IMG/VR virus record: IMGVR_UViG_3300044615_001189
Coordinates: 1 to 50,182 of that record
Strand: one strand, 5' to 3'
DNA length: 50,182 nucleotides
Origin: a virus
Taxonomy: Duplodnaviria; Caudoviricetes
Shown here piece by piece: positions 17,703-28,014 of the stretch (position 1 is its first letter; each line of letters begins with the position of its first letter). The translations under genes and the position numbers were made by a program. The notes under the pieces were generated by a model. It saw only the letters and a program-made list of their open reading frames with translations. It ran no database searches and was not told the DNA's origin.

Positions 17703-17753
17703 ACGCTACGGGCTGGAGGCGGTCTAGGCCCGTGGGTTGTAACAGTGCTTCAC
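17703..17753 (-). promoter_or_regulatory. HLR1-like direct repeat plus -10 box
   Basis: GTGAAG-CACT-GTTACA (17753-17738), 29 nt, TAGCGT. Confidence 0.6.
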
Positions 17754-19478: not shown

Positions 19479-19555
19479 GGGTGAGAGCGTGTGCTGGGGG
19501 GTTGACTGTGACGGGAGAGTGCCCGATCCTCCCGCGAAATCAAGTGGTTACGCAA

Positions 19556-19610
19556 GTATGTAACGGTATGCGACGGGATGGAGCGGGATGCGCCGGGAAG
19601 TCTGTAGGGT
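19556..19610 (+). promoter_or_regulatory. Divergent early control region: 10-bp tandem repeats plus -10 box
   Basis: gtatgtaacg/gtatgcgacg/ggatggagcg/ggatgcgccg, then TAGGGT at 19605. Confidence 0.6.
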
Positions 19611-21461: not shown

Positions 21462-21677
21462 ATGGGAGAGAAAGCGTTTCTAACGAGTAAGGAGCTGTCC
21501 GATCGATGGCGGCTCAGCGACCAGACGTTGGCCAACTGGCGCTATGCGGGCAAGGGCCCGCGGTTCATCCGGGTTGGCAGCCGGGTTCTTTACCCCGCCG
21601 AGGGGATCCACGCTTTCGAGAAGTCGAGCAATTTCGGCAACGCGGAAGATCAACAACAACCACAAGCAACCACGTGA
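21462..21677 (+). CDS. Excisionase-like HTH DNA-binding protein
   Basis: FLTSKELSDRWRLSDQTLANWRYAGKGPRFIRVGSRVLY. Confidence 0.85.
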   Translation: MGEKAFLTSKELSDRWRLSDQTLANWRYAGKGPRFIRVGSRVLYPAEGIHAFEKSSNFGNAEDQQQPQATT

Positions 21678-22138
21678 ACGACCCAATCGCAATTCTGCTC
21701 CGCGCGAGCCTGCATCAGTTCATCGGCCGACTGGGGAAGGATCCTGAGATCCGTTACCTGGAAAGCGGCAAATGCGTCGTCAACGTCAACATCGGCGTGA
21801 ACTGGTTGTCCGACAAGGACCAGACGGACTGGATCAAGCTGGAGGTGTGGGGCGAGGCCGGGCAAGCCTTCGCCGACGCTGCCCGGAAGGGCTACCTGGT
21901 GCAGGTGGCGGGGAGGGTGAAGACCGACCGCTGGACGGATCGGAGCACCGGCGAGGAGAAAATGCAGCTGTGCTGCAGGGTGGAGAGCTGGAAGGTGCTG
22001 GCGACGCCCCAGGGCGGCCAGGCGGCACCGGCAGCGGCCCCAGCGGCGGCCCCCGCGCCTGCGGCGGTGGCCCCGGCTCCCGCTCCGGCAGCGCCGCCGG
22101 TGTGGCAGACACCGGACCACGACGGGATCCCGTTCTGA
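21674..22138 (+). CDS. ssb: Single-stranded DNA-binding protein, cyanobacterial type
   Basis: GRLGKDPEIRYLESG, TDWIKLEVWG, DRWTDRSTGE, acidic tail DGIPF. Confidence 0.92.
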   Translation: MNDPIAILLRASLHQFIGRLGKDPEIRYLESGKCVVNVNIGVNWLSDKDQTDWIKLEVWGEAGQAFADAARKGYLVQVAGRVKTDRWTDRSTGEEKMQLCCRVESWKVLATPQGGQAAPAAAPAAAPAPAAVAPAPAPAAPPVWQTPDHDGIPF

Positions 22139-22158
22139 TCGAGGCCGGGTGATGGGAC

Positions 22159-22192
22159 AAGGGCCCGCTCCACTGGGGCGGGCCTTTCCTTT
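22159..22192 (+). terminator. Intrinsic terminator after ssb
   Basis: GGCCCGCTC-CACTG-GGGCGGGCC followed by TTTCCTTT. Confidence 0.75.
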
Positions 22193-22242
22193 GTGAAGAT
22201 GTGTAACAGCCGCTAGGCGCGGCCGGTGGCAGCGCGGATGAT
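22193..22242 (+). promoter_or_regulatory. HLR1-like direct repeat plus -10 box
   Basis: GTGAAG-ATGT-GTAACA, 28 nt, GATGAT. Confidence 0.6.
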
Positions 22243-22279
22243 GGCCTCACGGGGGACGACCCCCACCGCTCTCGCTCTC

Positions 22280-22510
22280 ATGGACATCCTCGACAGCACC
22301 TACTACCGCTCGCACGGCCGGAAGCCGCGCGGTCGCGGCTCCTGGGCCTTCTGCCCCTGGAGCAAGCAGAACGCTCTCGACTACCTGCAGCACACGATCT
22401 TCAGCCCCGGCGGCATGACGTTCACCGAGGCAAAGCGCTGGGCACGGCGGCACGCCAGCGACCCCAGCTCGCCGCTGGCTGGCGTCCGCACTGTCGCCGT
22501 GATGCCCTGA
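22280..22510 (+). CDS. Hypothetical protein
   Basis: MDILDSTYYRSHGRKPRGRGSWAF... Confidence 0.7.
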   Translation: MDILDSTYYRSHGRKPRGRGSWAFCPWSKQNALDYLQHTIFSPGGMTFTEAKRWARRHASDPSSPLAGVRTVAVMP

Positions 22511-22545
22511 GCGGCACCCCCTCCCCATCGCATCGCTTTCACCCC

Positions 22546-22938
22546 ATGACCCGTTTCATTGAGCTGCGCTTCCAGGTCCGCGACCACGGCGAAAAGCGCA
22601 TCAAGATCACCCCGGCCTGGGCCGGGAAGGGCATCGCCATCCACAAGCCGATCGCCTTCGACCCGGACACCCGCGAGCCGTACTTCCAGGAGGTCCAAGG
22701 CCTGTGGCGGCTCAGCCACATCAACTCCGGCCTGGCGCTGGGTGCCTGCATGGGCAGCCTGGATCGGGCCAAGAGCTTCGCCCGCGAGTGGGACCTGGAG
22801 TTCGCCGTGCCAGATCCCAAGGCCGTGATGGCTCCCAGCCGACTGAAGGAATGGGCCGCCGTGATGGAGGAGATGAAGACCGAGCCGCCGCGCAAGCCGC
22901 GCCAGCCGGCCATCCGCCGCGGCCGGGAGGTGGCCTGA
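22546..22938 (+). CDS. Hypothetical protein
   Basis: 130 aa ORF, TGATG-coupled to the methyltransferase. Confidence 0.65.
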   Translation: MTRFIELRFQVRDHGEKRIKITPAWAGKGIAIHKPIAFDPDTREPYFQEVQGLWRLSHINSGLALGACMGSLDRAKSFAREWDLEFAVPDPKAVMAPSRLKEWAAVMEEMKTEPPRKPRQPAIRRGREVA

Positions 22939-24356
22939 TGTTCAACCCCGACTTCTACCCCACCCCTGAGCTGGTGGCGGCCACGATGCTCGATCCCCTC
23001 GACCTTCGCGGCCGCACCGTGGTCGAGCCCTCGGCAGGCTCCGGGAACCTGGTCCGCGCGGCCCTGGAGCGCGGTGCCGAGGAAGTGCTGATGGTCGAGC
23101 CGGAGCCGAAGCTGCGGGCAATCCTGGCGGCAATCACCGGCGGCCGGCTGATCGGCAGCGACTGGCTGCAGGTCCAGGCGGAGCAGATCAGCCACGTGGA
23201 TCTGATCGTGATGAACCCGCCCTTCAGCGCGGACGAGCACCACATCCTGCACGCTTGGGCCATCGCCCCGGCCGGCTGCGAGATCGTGAGCCTCTGCAAC
23301 TGGTGCACGATCGAGGACAGCCGCTGGGGCTCCAGAGCCAGCCGGGAGCTCCGCACACTGATCGAGCAATACGGCAGCCGCCAGAACCTGGGCTCGGTGT
23401 TCGAGGACGCGGAGCGCACCACCCGGGTGGAGATCGGCCTGGTGCGGCTGACGAAGCCCGGCCAACGTGTAAGCGGCGCTGATGAGTTCGACGGGTTCTT
23501 CCTCGGGCCCGACGACATCGAGGCCCAGGGCGAGGGGATCATCCCTTACCGCCGGAGCCGCGACCTGGTGAACCGGTACGTCGAGGCCTGCCGCATCTAC
23601 GACCAGCAGCTGGAGGCCGGCGTGCGGCTGCAGGCCCAGGTGGGCGGCATCTACAAGGGCGAGCTCGGCCTGCAGATCACCATGGAGGGCTGCACCGCCA
23701 GCCGGAACCGCTTCCGGAAGGAGCTGCAGAAGAGCTTCTGGGAGTCGGTGATCGCCGAGATGCTGCCGCGCGAGATGGCCACCAGCCAGCTCCAGGGCGA
23801 CATCAACACGTTCGTGGAGCAGCAGACCAAGGTGCCGTTCACCGAGCGGAACCTGTTCCGCATGCTGCAGATCATCGCGGGCACGACGGATCAGCGGATC
23901 GACCGAGCGGTGGAGGCGGCGTTCGACGAGCTGACCCGCCACACCGCCGAGAACCGGTGGCAGGTTGAAGGCTGGAAGACGAACGACGCCTACCTGTTCA
24001 ACCAGAAGTTCATCGTGCCCTACCTGGCGGAGCCGGACTGGAGCGGCGGCACTGTGAGCCTGAAGCGGTGGAGCGGCAACTTCCCGCGGATCCGCGACCT
24101 GATCAAGGCGCTGGTCTACATCACCGGCCGGCCCTATGCCGAGGTGGAGGATCCCGCCTGCGGGTATGACCGGATCGAAGCCGGGGTCTGGTACGACTGG
24201 GGCTTCTTCGAGTTCAAGGTGTTCAAGAAGGGCACCGGCCACTTCCGGTTCAAGGATCCGGAGGACTGGGCTGCGCTGAACGCCCGGGTGGCGCGGATCA
24301 AGGGCCTGGTGCTGCCGGAGAAGCTCCGCCGCAAGGGCCGCCGTGCGCGAGTGTGA
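22938..24356 (+). CDS. Amino-DNA methyltransferase with DUF4942-like C-terminal domain
   Basis: DFYPTP, EPSAGSGN, MNPPF; GWKTNDAY...KVFKKGTGHFRF. Confidence 0.88.
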   Translation: MFNPDFYPTPELVAATMLDPLDLRGRTVVEPSAGSGNLVRAALERGAEEVLMVEPEPKLRAILAAITGGRLIGSDWLQVQAEQISHVDLIVMNPPFSADEHHILHAWAIAPAGCEIVSLCNWCTIEDSRWGSRASRELRTLIEQYGSRQNLGSVFEDAERTTRVEIGLVRLTKPGQRVSGADEFDGFFLGPDDIEAQGEGIIPYRRSRDLVNRYVEACRIYDQQLEAGVRLQAQVGGIYKGELGLQITMEGCTASRNRFRKELQKSFWESVIAEMLPREMATSQLQGDINTFVEQQTKVPFTERNLFRMLQIIAGTTDQRIDRAVEAAFDELTRHTAENRWQVEGWKTNDAYLFNQKFIVPYLAEPDWSGGTVSLKRWSGNFPRIRDLIKALVYITGRPYAEVEDPACGYDRIEAGVWYDWGFFEFKVFKKGTGHFRFKDPEDWAALNARVARIKGLVLPEKLRRKGRRARV

Positions 24357-24402
24357 ACAGTTGTTACAGAGCCGTGGCGAGCGGCTGTGGCGTCGTGATG
24401 AT
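24353..24402 (+). promoter_or_regulatory. HLR1-like direct repeat plus -10 box
   Basis: GTGAAC-AGTT-GTTACA, 28 nt, GATGAT. Confidence 0.6.
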
Positions 24403-24447
24403 GGGTCCATCGCCCCCGACGGGGCGGCACCTCTCGCCTCTCAACTC

Positions 24448-24645
24448 ATGACCACCACCTACATCACCAAGGCCCGCCGCCAAGACCTGATTGAGCAGTA
24501 CATGGACTGTTGGTTTGGCACCGAGAGCTACTCCACCGAAGATGCGGCCGAAAGCGAAGGCCAATGGATGCGCAGCCAGCTCGAAGCGATGAACAACAGC
24601 CAGCTCGTCGCTGAGTGCAAGGCATCCGGGTGGGGGATCGCCTGA
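24448..24645 (+). CDS. Hypothetical acidic protein
   Basis: MTTTYITK...; first gene after the 24353 promoter. Confidence 0.7.
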   Translation: MTTTYITKARRQDLIEQYMDCWFGTESYSTEDAAESEGQWMRSQLEAMNNSQLVAECKASGWGIA

Positions 24646-24650
24646 CCCCC

Positions 24651-24676
24651 ACGGCCCGCCGGGAGCCAATCCCGGC
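24651..24676 (+). ncRNA. Conserved intergenic RNA structure (predicted H-type pseudoknot), copy 1
   Basis: ACGGC-CC-GCCGGGA-GCC-AA-TCCCGGC, 5 nt after TGA. Confidence 0.6.
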
Positions 24677-24705
24677 ACCTCTCACCCTCTCACCTCTCAC
24701 CAGCC

Positions 24706-25002
24706 ATGTCCCGCTCCAGCATCACCCTCGTCGGCCGCGCCAGCCAGCTTGCGTTTCGCGAGTTCGAGTCCGGCACCACCCGCGCATCTTTCACCCTCAC
24801 AGTCAAAGGCCGCGGCGATCGGCCGCCCCTGGTGGTCGAGTGCGAGGGCTGGGGCACGAAGATCCGCGAGCAGTTCGAGCTGATGGACGAGGGCTGCCTC
24901 GTCGGCATCATCGGCTCCCTGACCAAGGGTGCGGTCGGTGCCATGCCGCTGGTGCGACTCGACCGCCTCGAGCACCTGGGCCAGCCCCTGGCGGCGGCCT
25001 GA
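24706..25002 (+). CDS. Second SSB-like OB-fold protein lacking an acidic tail
   Basis: ITLVGR...FESG...FTLTV...CEGWG...GCLVGIIGSL. Confidence 0.7.
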   Translation: MSRSSITLVGRASQLAFREFESGTTRASFTLTVKGRGDRPPLVVECEGWGTKIREQFELMDEGCLVGIIGSLTKGAVGAMPLVRLDRLEHLGQPLAAA

Positions 25003-25007
25003 CCGCC

Positions 25008-25039
25008 GCGGCCCGCCGGGAGCCGTTCCCAATCCCGGC
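25008..25039 (+). ncRNA. Conserved intergenic RNA structure (predicted H-type pseudoknot), copy 2
   Basis: GCGGC-CC-GCCGGGA-GCCGT-TCCCAA-TCCCGGC, 5 nt after TGA. Confidence 0.65.
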
Positions 25040-25065
25040 AGTCGTCAACTCTGCATCCATCATCA

Positions 25066-25332
25066 ATGGCACTCGAAAACCGCACCGTGATCCTGAACGG
25101 GGCTCAGTTCACGCTCGGGAAGAAATACCGAGACAGCGTTCTCGGCGTCGAAGGAACCGCAGTCGCATCGGCCACCTACCTCACCGGCTGCGATCAGATC
25201 CAGCTGGCTGCACGTGACGCCAACGGCATGCCCTACAGCCAGTGGTTCGACGTGACCCGGATCGAAGGGGTCGAGGTCGAAGAGCGGCCCGGCGGCCCTG
25301 GGCCCAACATCACCGCGCGCCACCCTGGCTGA
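25066..25332 (+). CDS. Hypothetical phage protein
   Basis: LGKKYRDSVLGVEG...YLTGCDQ...WFD...PGGP. Confidence 0.75.
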   Translation: MALENRTVILNGAQFTLGKKYRDSVLGVEGTAVASATYLTGCDQIQLAARDANGMPYSQWFDVTRIEGVEVEERPGGPGPNITARHPG

Positions 25333-25337
25333 TCTCT

Positions 25338-25367
25338 GCGGCCCGCCGGAGCCGCCCCCAATCCGGC
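25338..25367 (+). ncRNA. Conserved intergenic RNA structure (predicted H-type pseudoknot), copy 3
   Basis: GCGGC-CC-GCCGGA-GCCGC-CCCCAA-TCCGGC, 5 nt after TGA. Confidence 0.65.
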
Positions 25368-25390
25368 CGCCCCATCACCAACATCCCCTC

Positions 25391-25555
25391 ATGCGTTTCG
25401 CCCTCGTTTTCTTCTACCTGGCCTTCACCGTTGGAATCAGTGCCGGCTTCTTCCATGCCCTGTCGAGCACGCTGACCGACATGACCCGGCGCGACTGCCG
25501 CCTGGGTATGCCGGCTGCCTGCGAACAGCTCCAGCGCGACGGGGTGCAGCCGTGA
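25391..25555 (+). CDS. Small membrane protein (54 aa, absent from the ORF track)
   Basis: MRFALVFFYLAFTVGISAGFFHALSSTLTDMTRRDCRLGMPAACEQL...; hydrophobic N-terminus plus DCxxGxxxAC. Confidence 0.65.
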   Translation: MRFALVFFYLAFTVGISAGFFHALSSTLTDMTRRDCRLGMPAACEQLQRDGVQP

Positions 25556-25749
25556 GCTTTGCCCTTCGCCGCGGCCGGCAGTGGATCACCGCGCCTGATG
25601 GCGATGGTGATCCGATCCCGCCCACACTGGTGCCAGGAGACGACCAGGCCCTCGCCTGGGTTGCTTCCAACATCGACATCGCGCATGAGCGCCAGGCCTT
25701 GATCAAAATGCTCTGGGGCTGGACCACCGAAATCCGTGCACTCCCATGA
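25552..25749 (+). CDS. Hypothetical protein
   Basis: GTGA overlap coupling. Confidence 0.6.
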   Translation: MSFALRRGRQWITAPDGDGDPIPPTLVPGDDQALAWVASNIDIAHERQALIKMLWGWTTEIRALP

Positions 25750-25955
25750 GCATTGCCATCCCACCTTCCGCCTGGCGGTTGCAGCCCGGCCAGCAAGCGT
25801 TCGTGCGCGGCTGGCCCCAGGGCGAGACCGTGCTGATTCTCGCCCAGCTGGAGTTCATCGACTGGCCCCACTACATCGTGGCCGACAGCAACGGAGCCGA
25901 GTGGCGCATCAGCCAGCTGCAGCTCTCCAGCCGTCCGATCCCTGCGGACCGATGA
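25746..25955 (+). CDS. Hypothetical protein
   Basis: ATGA overlap coupling. Confidence 0.6.
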   Translation: MSIAIPPSAWRLQPGQQAFVRGWPQGETVLILAQLEFIDWPHYIVADSNGAEWRISQLQLSSRPIPADR

Positions 25956-26164
25956 ACTGCCCTCAATGCGACGGGCTCAGCCGCGTCATCACCAGCCGGC
26001 CAGTGTTGGACATCCACGGCGGCCGGCTGCGGCGGCGTGCTTGCACTCGATGCCCCGCTCGCTGGTACAGCCTGCAACCTGAGCAGCCTGCTGAGGTGGC
26101 GATCCCGGCGGATGCCGTGAGCTGGATGGCCAGCGACGTGATAATCCATCGCGACAAGCTGTAA
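25952..26164 (+). CDS. NrdR-like N-terminal zinc-ribbon protein
   Basis: MNCPQC...SRVITSR...RRRACTRC..RW. Confidence 0.7.
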   Translation: MNCPQCDGLSRVITSRPVLDIHGGRLRRRACTRCPARWYSLQPEQPAEVAIPADAVSWMASDVIIHRDKL

Positions 26165-26169
26165 GGACC

Positions 26170-26373
26170 ATGAGCCGGGATTGGAACACGCCGCAGCGGG
26201 AGCCGTGGAACGTCCTGATCCGCGAAGCCCTGTGCGGCGTGGACCGTCACAACCGCGAGCTGCTGCGCACTGGTGATCCGCGACACGCGATCATGGCGCA
26301 GCAGCTGCGCCAGTATGTGGGAGAGCTCAAGACCTGGATCCACCAGCAGGAGAACGATGAGCAGCGAGCCTGA
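26170..26373 (+). CDS. Hypothetical protein
   Basis: MSRDWNTPQREPWN...ELKTWI. Confidence 0.65.
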   Translation: MSRDWNTPQREPWNVLIREALCGVDRHNRELLRTGDPRHAIMAQQLRQYVGELKTWIHQQENDEQRA

Positions 26374-26530
26374 GGTGATCAACCGCTGGGAGATCGGCGA
26401 TGGCGTGATCGAGCAGCTACAGCGGGCAGATGGCCAGCTCTACTACCGCGCCTGCGCGAAGGGCTACTGCCGCTATGCCGAGGATCTGTGGATGGTGGAC
26501 CTGTACCTGAAGCACCTTCAGGCGCGCTGA
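26357..26530 (+). CDS. Hypothetical protein
   Basis: MSSEPEVI...YYRACAKGYCRYAEDLW. Confidence 0.6.
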   Translation: MSSEPEVINRWEIGDGVIEQLQRADGQLYYRACAKGYCRYAEDLWMVDLYLKHLQAR

Positions 26531-26772
26531 GCCAGGAGCTCCGCCGCCCAGGCCCTGTGCTCATCGGTGACGGGGCAGCCCTGGGCTTTCTCCTGCTCGG
26601 CGACCTGGCAGACGAGCTGATGGGAGACCTGGGCCTGGATGGCGGAGAAGCGGAGCAGGTTGACGGCGATGGTGCGGAGCTCGTCGAGGTTGGTGGACGC
26701 CTGGATGTAGCGCACCTGCTTCTCGACTTCGAACTGCTCGGAGAGGGGGAGGTTGAGATCCAGCCAGAACAT
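26518..26772 (-). CDS. NblA-like helix-loop-helix protein (candidate phycobilisome degradation adaptor)
   Basis: LPLSEQFEVEKQVRYIQ...LDELRTIAVNLLR resembles the NblA pattern LSLEQQF...helix-loop-helix. Confidence 0.5.
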   Translation of the reverse strand: MFWLDLNLPLSEQFEVEKQVRYIQASTNLDELRTIAVNLLRFSAIQAQVSHQLVCQVAEQEKAQGCPVTDEHRAWAAELLAQRA

Positions 26773-26796
26773 GGAGGGAGAGGCGTGGGTGCCTGA

Positions 26797-26865
26797 AGCG
26801 TAGAGCGGCGGTGCGTGAAGGATTGTTACAGGTGCTGCAGGATGGCGGGTGACGGTCCGTAGGGT
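26797..26865. promoter_or_regulatory. Divergent promoters sharing one HLR1-like box
   Basis: GTGAAG-GATT-GTTACA at 26815-26830; + strand TAGGGT at 26860; - strand TACGCT at 26802-26797. Confidence 0.6.
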
Positions 26866-26888
26866 GTGCAGGTCAACGGCACTCAACC

Positions 26889-27278
26889 ATGCCTGACCAC
26901 TTCGACGAACCCGCCGGCGAGGCCCGCAAGTCCGCCGAAAGCGCCAGCAAGCCTCGCCTCGATCTGCTGCCGCCGGCGGCGATGGAGGCCATCGCGGAGG
27001 TGCTGACGTTTGGGGCCAACAAGTACGGGGCGAACAACTGGTGCCGTGGTGCCCGCTGGGGCCGCTACTACGCGGCGCTGCTGCGGCACCTGTTCGCCTG
27101 GTGGCGCGGCGAGGACCGCGACCCGGAGACAGGCCTGAGCCACCTGGCCCACGCCGGCTGCTGCCTGGTGTTCCTGATGGAGTACCAGCGCAACAGCTGG
27201 GGATCGGACGATCGGTTCCGGGGCCCCGATGGCGAGCAGTCCCAGAAGGGCGACGGCGCGCCGACCGCTACACTCTGA
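26889..27278 (+). CDS. dATP/dGTP diphosphohydrolase-like (DUF5664) protein
   Basis: KPRLDLLP...FGANKYGANNW...LLRH...GEDRDPETGLSHLAHA. Confidence 0.85.
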   Translation: MPDHFDEPAGEARKSAESASKPRLDLLPPAAMEAIAEVLTFGANKYGANNWCRGARWGRYYAALLRHLFAWWRGEDRDPETGLSHLAHAGCCLVFLMEYQRNSWGSDDRFRGPDGEQSQKGDGAPTATL

Positions 27279-27296
27279 CCGAGAGCCGTGCACACT

Positions 27297-27327
27297 GCCC
27301 GGGGAGGTGAGAGCCCCCGGGCTTTTT
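27297..27327 (+). terminator. Intrinsic terminator
   Basis: GCCCGGGG...CCCCGGGC followed by TTTTT. Confidence 0.7.
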
Positions 27328-27338
27328 GCTGGGCGTGG

Positions 27339-27366
27339 TTGCGGCAACGGCAACGCACCTTAGAAT
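27339..27366 (+). promoter_or_regulatory. Sigma70-like promoter of the HNH gene
   Basis: TTGCGG-16 nt-TAGAAT. Confidence 0.5.
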
Positions 27367-27387
27367 CATGGCAGCCGTTAAAAGCGA

Positions 27388-27741
27388 GTGCCATCCAACA
27401 GTGCCGACTACCAGCGCGCTTATTACGAGCGCAACCGCGAGAAGGTAAAGCGGCAGGCGGCAGCAGCAAACAAGCGCAAGAGAGAGTCTCACCGCCAACG
27501 CATCCGGGAGTACCTGCTGGCGCATCCATGCGTCGACTGCGGCGAGGCAGATCCAGTCGTCCTGGAGTTCGACCACAGGGTGCCAGCCGACAAGAGTTTC
27601 TGCATCAGCTCAAAGGTGAGCGTCACATGGCGCTGGGAGTTGATCGAAGCTGAAATTGCCAAATGCGACGTGCGATGCGCCAACTGCCATCGGCGACGCA
27701 CGTTCGCAGAAAAACACTGGCTTCTGGGGAAGCGGGTCTGA
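27388..27741 (+). CDS. HNH endonuclease
   Basis: CVDCG..DPVVLEFDH...EIAKCDVRCANCHRRRT. Confidence 0.88.
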   Translation: MPSNSADYQRAYYERNREKVKRQAAAANKRKRESHRQRIREYLLAHPCVDCGEADPVVLEFDHRVPADKSFCISSKVSVTWRWELIEAEIAKCDVRCANCHRRRTFAEKHWLLGKRV

Positions 27742-27809
27742 ACCGTTGACCGCCTGTGGTCACCGCGTGGGAACGGCCGCCGTGCAGTAGGCTGCTCACG
27801 GAATGTTCG

Positions 27810-27841
27810 AGCCCCGTAAGCCATTGGCCTGCGGGGCTTTT
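27810..27841. terminator. Hairpin next to attP (replacement terminator 3' of the restored tRNA)
   Basis: AGCCCCGTAAGCC-ATT-GGCCTGCGGGGCT followed by a T run. Confidence 0.6.
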
Positions 27842-27844
27842 CCT

Positions 27845-27890
27845 TGGATGCGGGGGCAGGATTTGAACCTGCGACCTTCAGGTTATGAGC
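27845..27890 (-). mobile_element. attP core = 3' half of a tRNA-Met(CAT), probably the initiator tRNA
   Basis: Reverse complement GCTCATAACCTGAAGGTCGCAGGTTCAAATCCTGCCCCCGCATCCA (anticodon loop, T arm, CCA); no 5' half; about 125 bp upstream of the integrase. Confidence 0.9.
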
Positions 27891-28014
27891 ATGACGCTCG
27901 GGCCTACCGTGGGATCACTGCGCATCCCTGAGCCTTGATTCTCCTGGGACTGGACTACCTGCCGCTCCTCGGGTATCCCTGCCGATCCCGGCAATCTGTG
28001 GGAACGGTGTGGGA

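Follow-up and report, generated by a model that had tools for sequence, protein, structure and literature searches.

A covarying H-type pseudoknot placed upstream of many unrelated small genes in uncultured phages

Three pseudoknots in an accessory-gene array

The IMG/VR virus record IMGVR_UViG_3300044615_001189 (Duplodnaviria; Caudoviricetes) is a phage genome of 50,182 bp with a GC content of ~67%, all of which was analysed and is here called the window. The subject of this work is a compact H-type pseudoknot, hereafter the knot, which recurs three times in this genome between consecutive small genes. The phage is temperate and myovirus-like, since it carries terminase, protease-capsid fusion, tail sheath, tape measure and integrase genes. 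Its closest isolated relatives in a tblastn search with TerL are <50% identical, and a protein-cluster search with the capsid fusion protein matched viral clusters only, with no host match. The DNA sequencing runs that contain the phage are lake-water and freshwater metagenomes, with no RNA run among those listed. The knot array lies in a rightward operon that begins with a RecE-like exonuclease, RecT and SSB, continues with a DNA methyltransferase and ends in a string of small open reading frames (ORFs).

All three copies lie on the + strand and follow TGA stop codons at 24643-24645, 25000-25002 and 25330-25332. Five nucleotides past each stop the sequence reads A/G-CGGC-CC-GCCGG(G)A-GCC...AA-TCC(C)GGC. 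The exact 11-mer CGGCCCGCCGG occurs three times in the 50,182-bp genome, at these sites only, and marks one repeat family. A preliminary description of this DNA had reported the three copies with their 5-nt offset, their pairings and the in-frame linkers that follow, and all of this was confirmed in the window.

The first TGA (24643-24645) closes a 65-aa ORF (24448-24645) and is followed by a 5-nt C-run spacer (24646-24650) and copy 1 (24651-24676). In this copy, stem 1 pairs GGC (24653-24655) with GCC (24665-24667), loop 1 is CC (24656-24657), stem 2 pairs 24658-24664 with 24670-24676, and loop 3 is AA (24668-24669) within a hairpin loop at 24665-24669. A 29-nt leader of repeated CUCUCACC-like units (24677-24705) then runs to ATG 24706; it contains a single G, near its 3' end, and lacks a purine-rich Shine-Dalgarno (SD) run. 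The 98-aa ORF that starts here (24706-25002) has a weak, sub-threshold SSB-like Pfam match and ends at TGA 25000. Copy 2 (25008-25039) has a longer stem 1 (25008-25012 with 25022-25026, including one G-U pair), loop 1 at 25013-25014, stem 2 at 25015-25021 and 25033-25039, and loop 3 at 25027-25032. Its 26-nt leader (25040-25065) leads to ATG 25066 of an 88-aa ORF (25066-25332; phrog_16275), which has relatives in 10 viral loci and ends at TGA 25330. In copy 3 (25338-25367), stem 1 pairs 25338-25342 with 25351-25355, loop 1 is 25343-25344 and loop 3 is 25356-25361. Stem 2 of this copy has 6 bp (25345-25350 with 25362-25367), one pair fewer, a base being missing from both strands. A 23-nt G-poor leader (25368-25390) precedes ATG 25391 of a 54-aa ORF (25391-25555).

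The slot before ATG 24448 has the same architecture with a different hairpin: an unrelated 6-bp GC hairpin (24411-24426) and a 21-nt G-poor leader together occupy 24411-24447 on the + strand. The linkers after copies 1 and 2, of 60 and 63 nt, are stop-free and in frame, and the three TGA codons are the only stops in the 1.3-kb frame that runs from 24448 to 25749. The ORFs starting at 24448, 24706, 25066 and 25552 share this frame; the 54-aa ORF at 25391-25555 lies in another, across the third linker.

On its own the window makes a weak case. The window contains 9 matches to a generic pseudoknot grammar, where 20 shuffles averaged 4.9, and only the three copies lie in an intergenic context; a loose 16-mer with up to 3 mismatches was not enriched there (7 found versus 6.2 expected). 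The significance of the element comes from its family outside the window.

A large family in viral contigs

Family instances were supplied by three pattern scans of viral contigs, and all family counts given here and below are among the matches listed. Scan 1 searched for a 15-16 nt core that fixes most of stem 1. Scan 2 left stem 1 unconstrained and fixed only loop 1, stem 2 on both sides and the A that comes next, whereas scan 3 fixed stem 1 and stem 2 with loop 1 free. Scan 1 returned at least 119 viral loci, ~60 of them with the full hairpin in the order stop codon, C-rich spacer, element, G-poor leader and ATG. After a simple structural filter, the three scans together comprised at least 192 distinct instances, and a covariance model built from 20 copies detected additional, diverged copies in the same contigs. 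The knot is a large family in uncultured phage contigs, with members both in contigs of 46-57% GC that carry strong SD sequences and in contigs of ~70% GC.

Among isolated phages, BLAST with three element types found only Synechococcus phage S-H1, which holds one degenerate copy. A scan of genome contigs returned at least 120 loci, nearly all of them chance matches within GC-rich genes; among the matches listed, three small Bacillota metagenome-assembled genome (MAG) contigs carry the element in context. As the preliminary description had supposed, the element belongs to no named family: Rfam 15 gave no match in the window at the gathering score and none on 24300-25600 at E ≤ 10, and the element in 7 family loci was unmatched at E ≤ 1. 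A literature search for the motif strings or a similar element found no description, though the supplementary motif tables of the IMG/VR catalogue of candidate structured RNAs (PMC10690425) may contain it. The fold and the family are new to Rfam and to the text searched; a conserved intergenic cassette in phage accessory-gene arrays is a known kind of element.

Two further hairpins resemble the knot in sequence or setting. Around L102:5705 and L156:383, in mid-GC contigs, a recurrent hairpin GCCCGGC - GGGGG..AA - GCCGGGC stands directly before the SD sequence and may be a sister element. In L246, L247 and L249, a variant hairpin GCGGCCC-GCCTCT-GGGCCGC lies 3' of the homologue of the 88-aa gene and is followed by a 24-nt G-poor leader; its first 10 nt equal those of the canonical element, paired differently.

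Both stems of the pseudoknot covary

Across the family the knot consists of a stem 1 of 3-5 bp, a 2-nt loop 1 with C first, a stem 2 of 6-7 bp stacked directly on stem 1, and a loop 3 of 2-6 nt with A last. The H-type fold originally proposed from the window, with CC as loop 1 and no loop 2, holds in the family, where each stem covaries in sets collected without selection for that stem.

Scan 1 fixed most of stem 1, and pairing in this stem was therefore assessed in scan 2, where the triplet preceding loop 1 was compared with the triplet that opens the hairpin loop. All three positions paired in 81 of the 121 distinct matches listed, chance matches included, against 1-2 of 121 when the register was slid by one or two bases. 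Thirty of these 81 stems use triplets other than GGC/GCC, comprising CGC/GCG (14), AGC/GCU (5), GCC/GGC (3), CCG/CGG (2), GUC/GAC (1) and a remaining few that look like chance. From the in-register excess and the variety of triplets, we conclude that the H-type pseudoknot is real, with both stems covarying.

A quantitative comparison gave the same picture. MAFFT and our alignments A1, A3 and A4 misplace the G/C two-sided indel, and structures were therefore parsed by script and alignment A5 was used, which consists of fixed-length 22-mers from the scan blind to stem 1. Here, 78.6% of stem 1 cells were paired (56.1 ± 2.0 in shuffles), 55 cells had changed on both sides (18.9 ± 3.6) and the covariation score was 0.453 (0.158 shuffled), with none of 500 shuffles equalling the observed pairing, both-sides-changed count or covariation score. 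This shuffle control is inflated by the mix of family and non-family rows, and the sturdier evidence lies in the variety of pair types and in the slid registers, which reach at most 39.8% pairing and a covariation score of at most 0.144. Pairs four and five of stem 1 occur mainly in long-loop members and are mostly unpaired overall, and there are counter-examples (L193 position 264, L099 position 2094 and several A.C ends).

Stem 2 varies on both sides in family context, as GCCCGGA/TCCGGGC, GGTGGGA/TCCCACC, GCCAAA/TTTGGC and GCCAGGA/TCCTGGC; loci with such changes are L318 (three copies), L281 (two copies), L355, L344 and L345. Orthologous slots add a two-sided indel between 6-bp and 7-bp forms of stem 2, and A-U to G-C changes. 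The unpaired bases are also conserved, with C opening loop 1 in 111 of 117 instances and A closing loop 3 in 112 of 117, a pattern that would be typical of groove contacts in compact pseudoknots.

The knot keeps a preferred distance from gene starts

Family members fall into those with and those without an SD sequence. Among the non-SD instances, an ATG lies 12-45 nt downstream in 113 of 137, and in 54 of these 113 it lies at 23-25 nt; within scan 1 the knot-to-ATG distance is mostly 20-27 nt. Of the 55 SD-type instances, 38 have an SD-like purine run that begins 0-9 nt past the knot, most often at 3 nt. In the leader, G is almost absent from +3 to +11, and CC precedes the ATG in ~80%. The element is oriented in the sense of its genes: in L003, which has copies on both strands, each copy has a G-poor leader and a nearby ATG on its own strand. 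Many of the G-poor leaders also contain CAUCCCAYYGCA, 8-12 nt before the ATG, at the usual place of an SD sequence; the same motif occurs without a knot in L245, downstream of the homologue of the 88-aa gene.

The neighbouring genes are diverse. The 85 downstream ORFs fall into 59 clusters and the 85 upstream ORFs into 57, the flanking genes thus being unrelated. In orthologous slots the knot can be replaced by another GC hairpin or by none, with the G-poor leader still there.

The upstream stop codon is likewise near. Measured to the 5-nt stem 1 window, its distance has a mode of 5 nt, and 58 of 75 instances fall within -1 to 9 nt; the range around the mode is about -1 to 16 nt, and 10 of 75 lie farther off, at 26-45 nt. 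The fixed 5-nt offset expected from the three copies in the window is therefore only the mode. In 16 of 81 instances an upstream stop is missing or the nearest one is at least 26 nt off, and a start codon is nonetheless present 11-28 nt downstream in most of them; in 6 of 81 no upstream ORF ends within 55 nt. In four related contigs of ~70% GC (L377, at 2421-2551, L378, L414 and L419), the knot follows an ORF stop and is itself followed, after 5-6 nt, by a tRNA-Ser/Thr-like gene. This gene, an ARAGORN call, is unusually long (97-99 nt) and precedes an SD sequence and an ORF. Because some copies lack a nearby upstream ORF and because of this tRNA-gene group, the element is tied to the downstream gene unit at least as much as to the upstream stop.

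Transcription signals were also sought around the copies in the window. The search for sigma-70-like promoters gave no promoter-like site in 22000-28000. The search for T-run terminators gave 4 terminator-like sites, none of them at a knot copy, where the 3' flank is rich in C and A. Promoters seen by eye on the + strand upstream of the knots in L272, L298 and L339 were not called by the promoter scan and were set aside.

Stop codons and reading frames

The preliminary description had favoured programmed readthrough of UGA, with fusion proteins made across the linkers. The geometry does resemble that of known stimulators, with a knot ~5-8 nt past the stop, and C follows the stop in 33 of 61 instances; in the window itself, four ORFs in one frame are broken only by three TGA codons. 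The family does not bear this out. Its frames and stops were tallied in two sets, of 61 and 60 instances, that overlap in part. TGA is used 39 times, TAA 19 and TAG 3 in the first set, and TGA 33, TAA 20 and TAG 7 in the second, so that TAA and TAG together account for 22 of 61 and 27 of 60 stops and UGA is not singled out. Nor are in-frame linkers a rule: with in-frame cases counted first, the next start is spread over the three frames as 24/16/21 of 61 and 18/21/21 of 60, as expected by chance. At 8 orthologous slots upstream of relatives of the 88-aa gene, the gaps of 57-62 nt cover all three residues modulo 3. Since there is no frame bias and orthologous slots differ in frame, readthrough fusion is not a property of the family. 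By the family data, the in-frame run in the window looks like a local coincidence, made easier because GC-rich DNA and G-poor linkers contain few stop codons. Two other roles named in the preliminary description, translational coupling and RNase-resistant processing, stay candidates.

Mosaic joints fall at the edges of the element

Mosaicism was assessed by blastn of all fetched viral loci against 22-28 kb of the window. Homology to L101 extends up to 24332 and resumes exactly at 25338, the first base of copy 3. L240 matches exactly 24994-25367, from knot 2 through the end of knot 3, and homology to L247, L248, L250 and L251 begins at ~24701-24710. Five loci share with the window only 24638-24711, that is, the element and its leader. 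Contigs of four other lake runs diverge from the window at 24639, 24677, 25020 and 25368, and one lake contig, at a depth of 3 and with a shorter side of 32 nt, joins 25008 to 25338 and skips the cassette between them. The mosaic breakpoints coincide with element edges, in agreement with the early suggestion that the element could act as a handle for recombination.

Proposed function of the pseudoknot

The fold is selected, the element is oriented in gene sense, and it sits at a preferred distance upstream of start codons, flanked by many unrelated small genes. From these features we take it to be an mRNA element that belongs to the downstream gene unit. With moderate confidence, and on sequence comparison, we propose that the knot is a gene-start module of the 5' untranslated region that serves stability, insulation or ribosome landing, that it is also a recombination joint, and that it is not a readthrough signal. 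Each cassette would then consist of a stop codon, a short C-rich spacer, the pseudoknot, an unstructured G-poor leader of ~23-25 nt (or, in other hosts, a directly adjoining SD sequence) and the start codon. Standing at the 5' border of the region where ribosomes land, a knot of high stability could keep the leader single-stranded and insulate it both from terminating ribosomes and from the GC-rich coding RNA upstream. The knot could further serve the downstream cistron as a cap or barrier that hinders 5'-end-dependent decay and, after cleavage, serve the upstream cistron as a 3' cap. Gene swapping at the knot may occur because ~30-45 nt are nearly identical among cassettes; the shared sequence would supply homology for exchanges between phages, and recombination would be a by-product that spreads the knot.

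A more specific version of this proposal is possible, and we hold it more tentatively. The knot may be a phage-borne, host-independent RNA device of ~24-35 nt for cistron starts, which either docks 30S/S1 for SD-less initiation or stops 5'-to-3' and scanning RNases in the manner of exonuclease-resistant RNAs, and which recombination has spread among phages of apparently unrelated hosts. Such a host range is suggested by the one Synechococcus isolate, the Bacillota-labelled MAG contigs and the ~70% GC contigs with strong SD sequences. The idea of an RCCA tail, or RNase P mimic, was rejected because SD-type members have no such tail.

Several observations weigh against a gene-start module. The stop codon is also close, as described above, and one related contig group places the knot 5-6 nt before a tRNA-like gene and not before a start codon, which would also suit an element that acts on the upstream cistron at its 3' end. 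The preferred ATG distance could in part reflect shared ancestry of a knot-plus-leader unit and not constraint. The sequence is very highly conserved, also in contigs of 46-57% GC, and a purely structural role needs no such conservation, which hints at a specific binding partner. Wobble asymmetry, examined as a test of the folding strand, was even (G.T 7 versus A.C or C.A 7), and nested-fold z-scores of the three linkers (ViennaRNA, with which pseudoknots are not scorable) were -0.8 to -1.8 and not significant.

Among the alternatives, the one that survives best is an operator for a trans-acting factor, although we think it rather unlikely. The knot and its unstructured leader would be bound by an RNA-binding protein, in the style of T4 gp32 or RegA, or by S1/30S, and the genes of all cassettes would thereby be co-regulated or supplied with ribosomes. 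This would account for sequence conserved beyond structure across contigs of 46-72% GC and for the conserved C and A of loops 1 and 3. A knot followed by an unstructured leader to the ribosome site also matches the T4 gene 32 operator as presented in PMC10690425, and the operon encodes both SSB (21506-22138) and RecT. The conserved loop bases, however, are explained equally by tertiary contacts inside the knot; orthologous slots hold unrelated hairpins or none, and no candidate binding protein is tied to the element by co-occurrence.

Less probable still is a REP-like 3'-end element of the upstream cistron, which would shield that cistron from exonucleases working 3'-to-5' or affect termination at the neighbouring stop codon. 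The short stop-to-knot distances speak for it, as do the four contigs with a tRNA-like gene, in which the knot follows an ORF stop and a presumed RNase P cut would place it close to the upstream RNA's 3' end. Compact phage genomes, however, put any intergenic element near the preceding stop; the upstream stop is distant or absent in the 16 of 81 instances noted above, and it is the distance to the downstream ATG that is sharply peaked.

We regard as improbable a pure DNA-level handle for recombination or mobility with no RNA function, conserved through spread and gene conversion. Breakpoints at the element edges, the five loci that share the element and leader only, and the RecE-like and RecT proteins of the phage all favour such a handle. 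Homology needs no compensatory changes, yet both stems show them, the pseudoknot stem included. The element is moreover strictly co-oriented with genes, including the copies on both strands of L003 with their own leaders and ATGs, and keeps a preferred distance from start codons.

Programmed stop-codon readthrough, or stimulation of another recoding event, is very improbable given the chance-level frames, the TAA and TAG stops, the varying gaps at orthologous slots, the copies that have no nearby upstream ORF and the group before a tRNA gene.

Comparison with known intergenic elements

The gammaretroviral gag-pol readthrough signal is an H-type pseudoknot that starts a few nucleotides past a stop codon. 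The phage knot shares both the fold class and this placement, but it shows neither a downstream in-frame preference nor stop-codon specificity. The T4 gene 32 operator serves one autoregulated gene. According to PMC10690425, it has a 5' pseudoknot followed by an unstructured leader to the ribosome-binding site, as does the phage cassette. In contrast, the knot precedes 59 clusters of unrelated genes and is not tied to the SSB gene. REP elements and T7 RNase III sites are intercistronic structures that punctuate polycistronic RNA and stabilise the pieces. The plastid intercistronic expression element (named in PMC2230500) is similarly intercistronic, punctuating polycistronic RNA and stabilising its pieces. 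All three differ from the knot in sequence and fold.

The closest parallels come from two groups of phages. In T4-type phages, PeSL cassettes combine a sigma-70-like early promoter with a terminator stem-loop, as set out in Arbiol 2010 (PMC2839356) and Comeau 2014 (PMC4122927). By these accounts, PeSL cassettes and the knot are both short conserved intergenic cassettes that flank small non-essential ORFs (PMC2839356, PMC4122927), and both have recombination breakpoints at the cassette, a parallel in gene shuffling. The knot copies differ in that they have no promoter-like or terminator-like site and form a covarying pseudoknot positioned by the start codon. The start-associated sequence (SAS) of Cluster K mycobacteriophages is 13 bp long, contains an SD core and lies 3-7 bp from the start; the authors of PMC3203893 saw little pairing support for the inverted repeats of ESAS and suspected a role of SAS/ESAS in translation initiation. 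Like the knot, SAS and ESAS are described there as oriented repeats just upstream of many unrelated non-structural gene starts, sometimes overlapping the previous stop (PMC3203893). The knot, by comparison, has another sequence, covaries in both stems and ends 23-25 nt before the ATG.

Intergenic cassettes that both regulate and shuffle have been known mainly from T4-type phages (PeSL) and Cluster K mycobacteriophages (SAS). The knot is a structurally defined, covariation-supported RNA that fills this niche in many uncultured phages. It offers a very small RNA with which SD-less phage gene expression in GC-rich hosts, message stabilisation and cassette exchange could be tested, and a practical marker of gene starts and cassette borders for the annotation of viral metagenomes.

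Other features of the operon

Downstream of the array, a 129-aa ORF at 26889-27278 matches the N-terminal domain of dATP/dGTP diphosphohydrolase (PF18909, E 7.7e-36). This domain is known from phage pathways that handle the nucleotide pool or modified bases.

A second oriented repeat, GTGAA-N4-TGTWACAG, has 4 copies in the window against 0.04 expected, at 17737-17753 (-), 22193-22209 (+), 24353-24369 (+) and 26815-26831 (+). The three copies on the + strand are spaced ~2.2-2.5 kb apart in the rightward operon, and one copy overlaps the methyltransferase stop, ~80 nt upstream of ATG 24448. These repeats may be a set of phage promoters or operators. The divergent intergenic region at ~19479-19587, between the leftward helicase gene and the rightward operon, contains on its - strand the palindrome GTTACATACTTGCGTAAC, which resembles part of the repeat. 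In the same region, the helicase ATG is preceded by a GC hairpin and a 33-nt G-poor leader.

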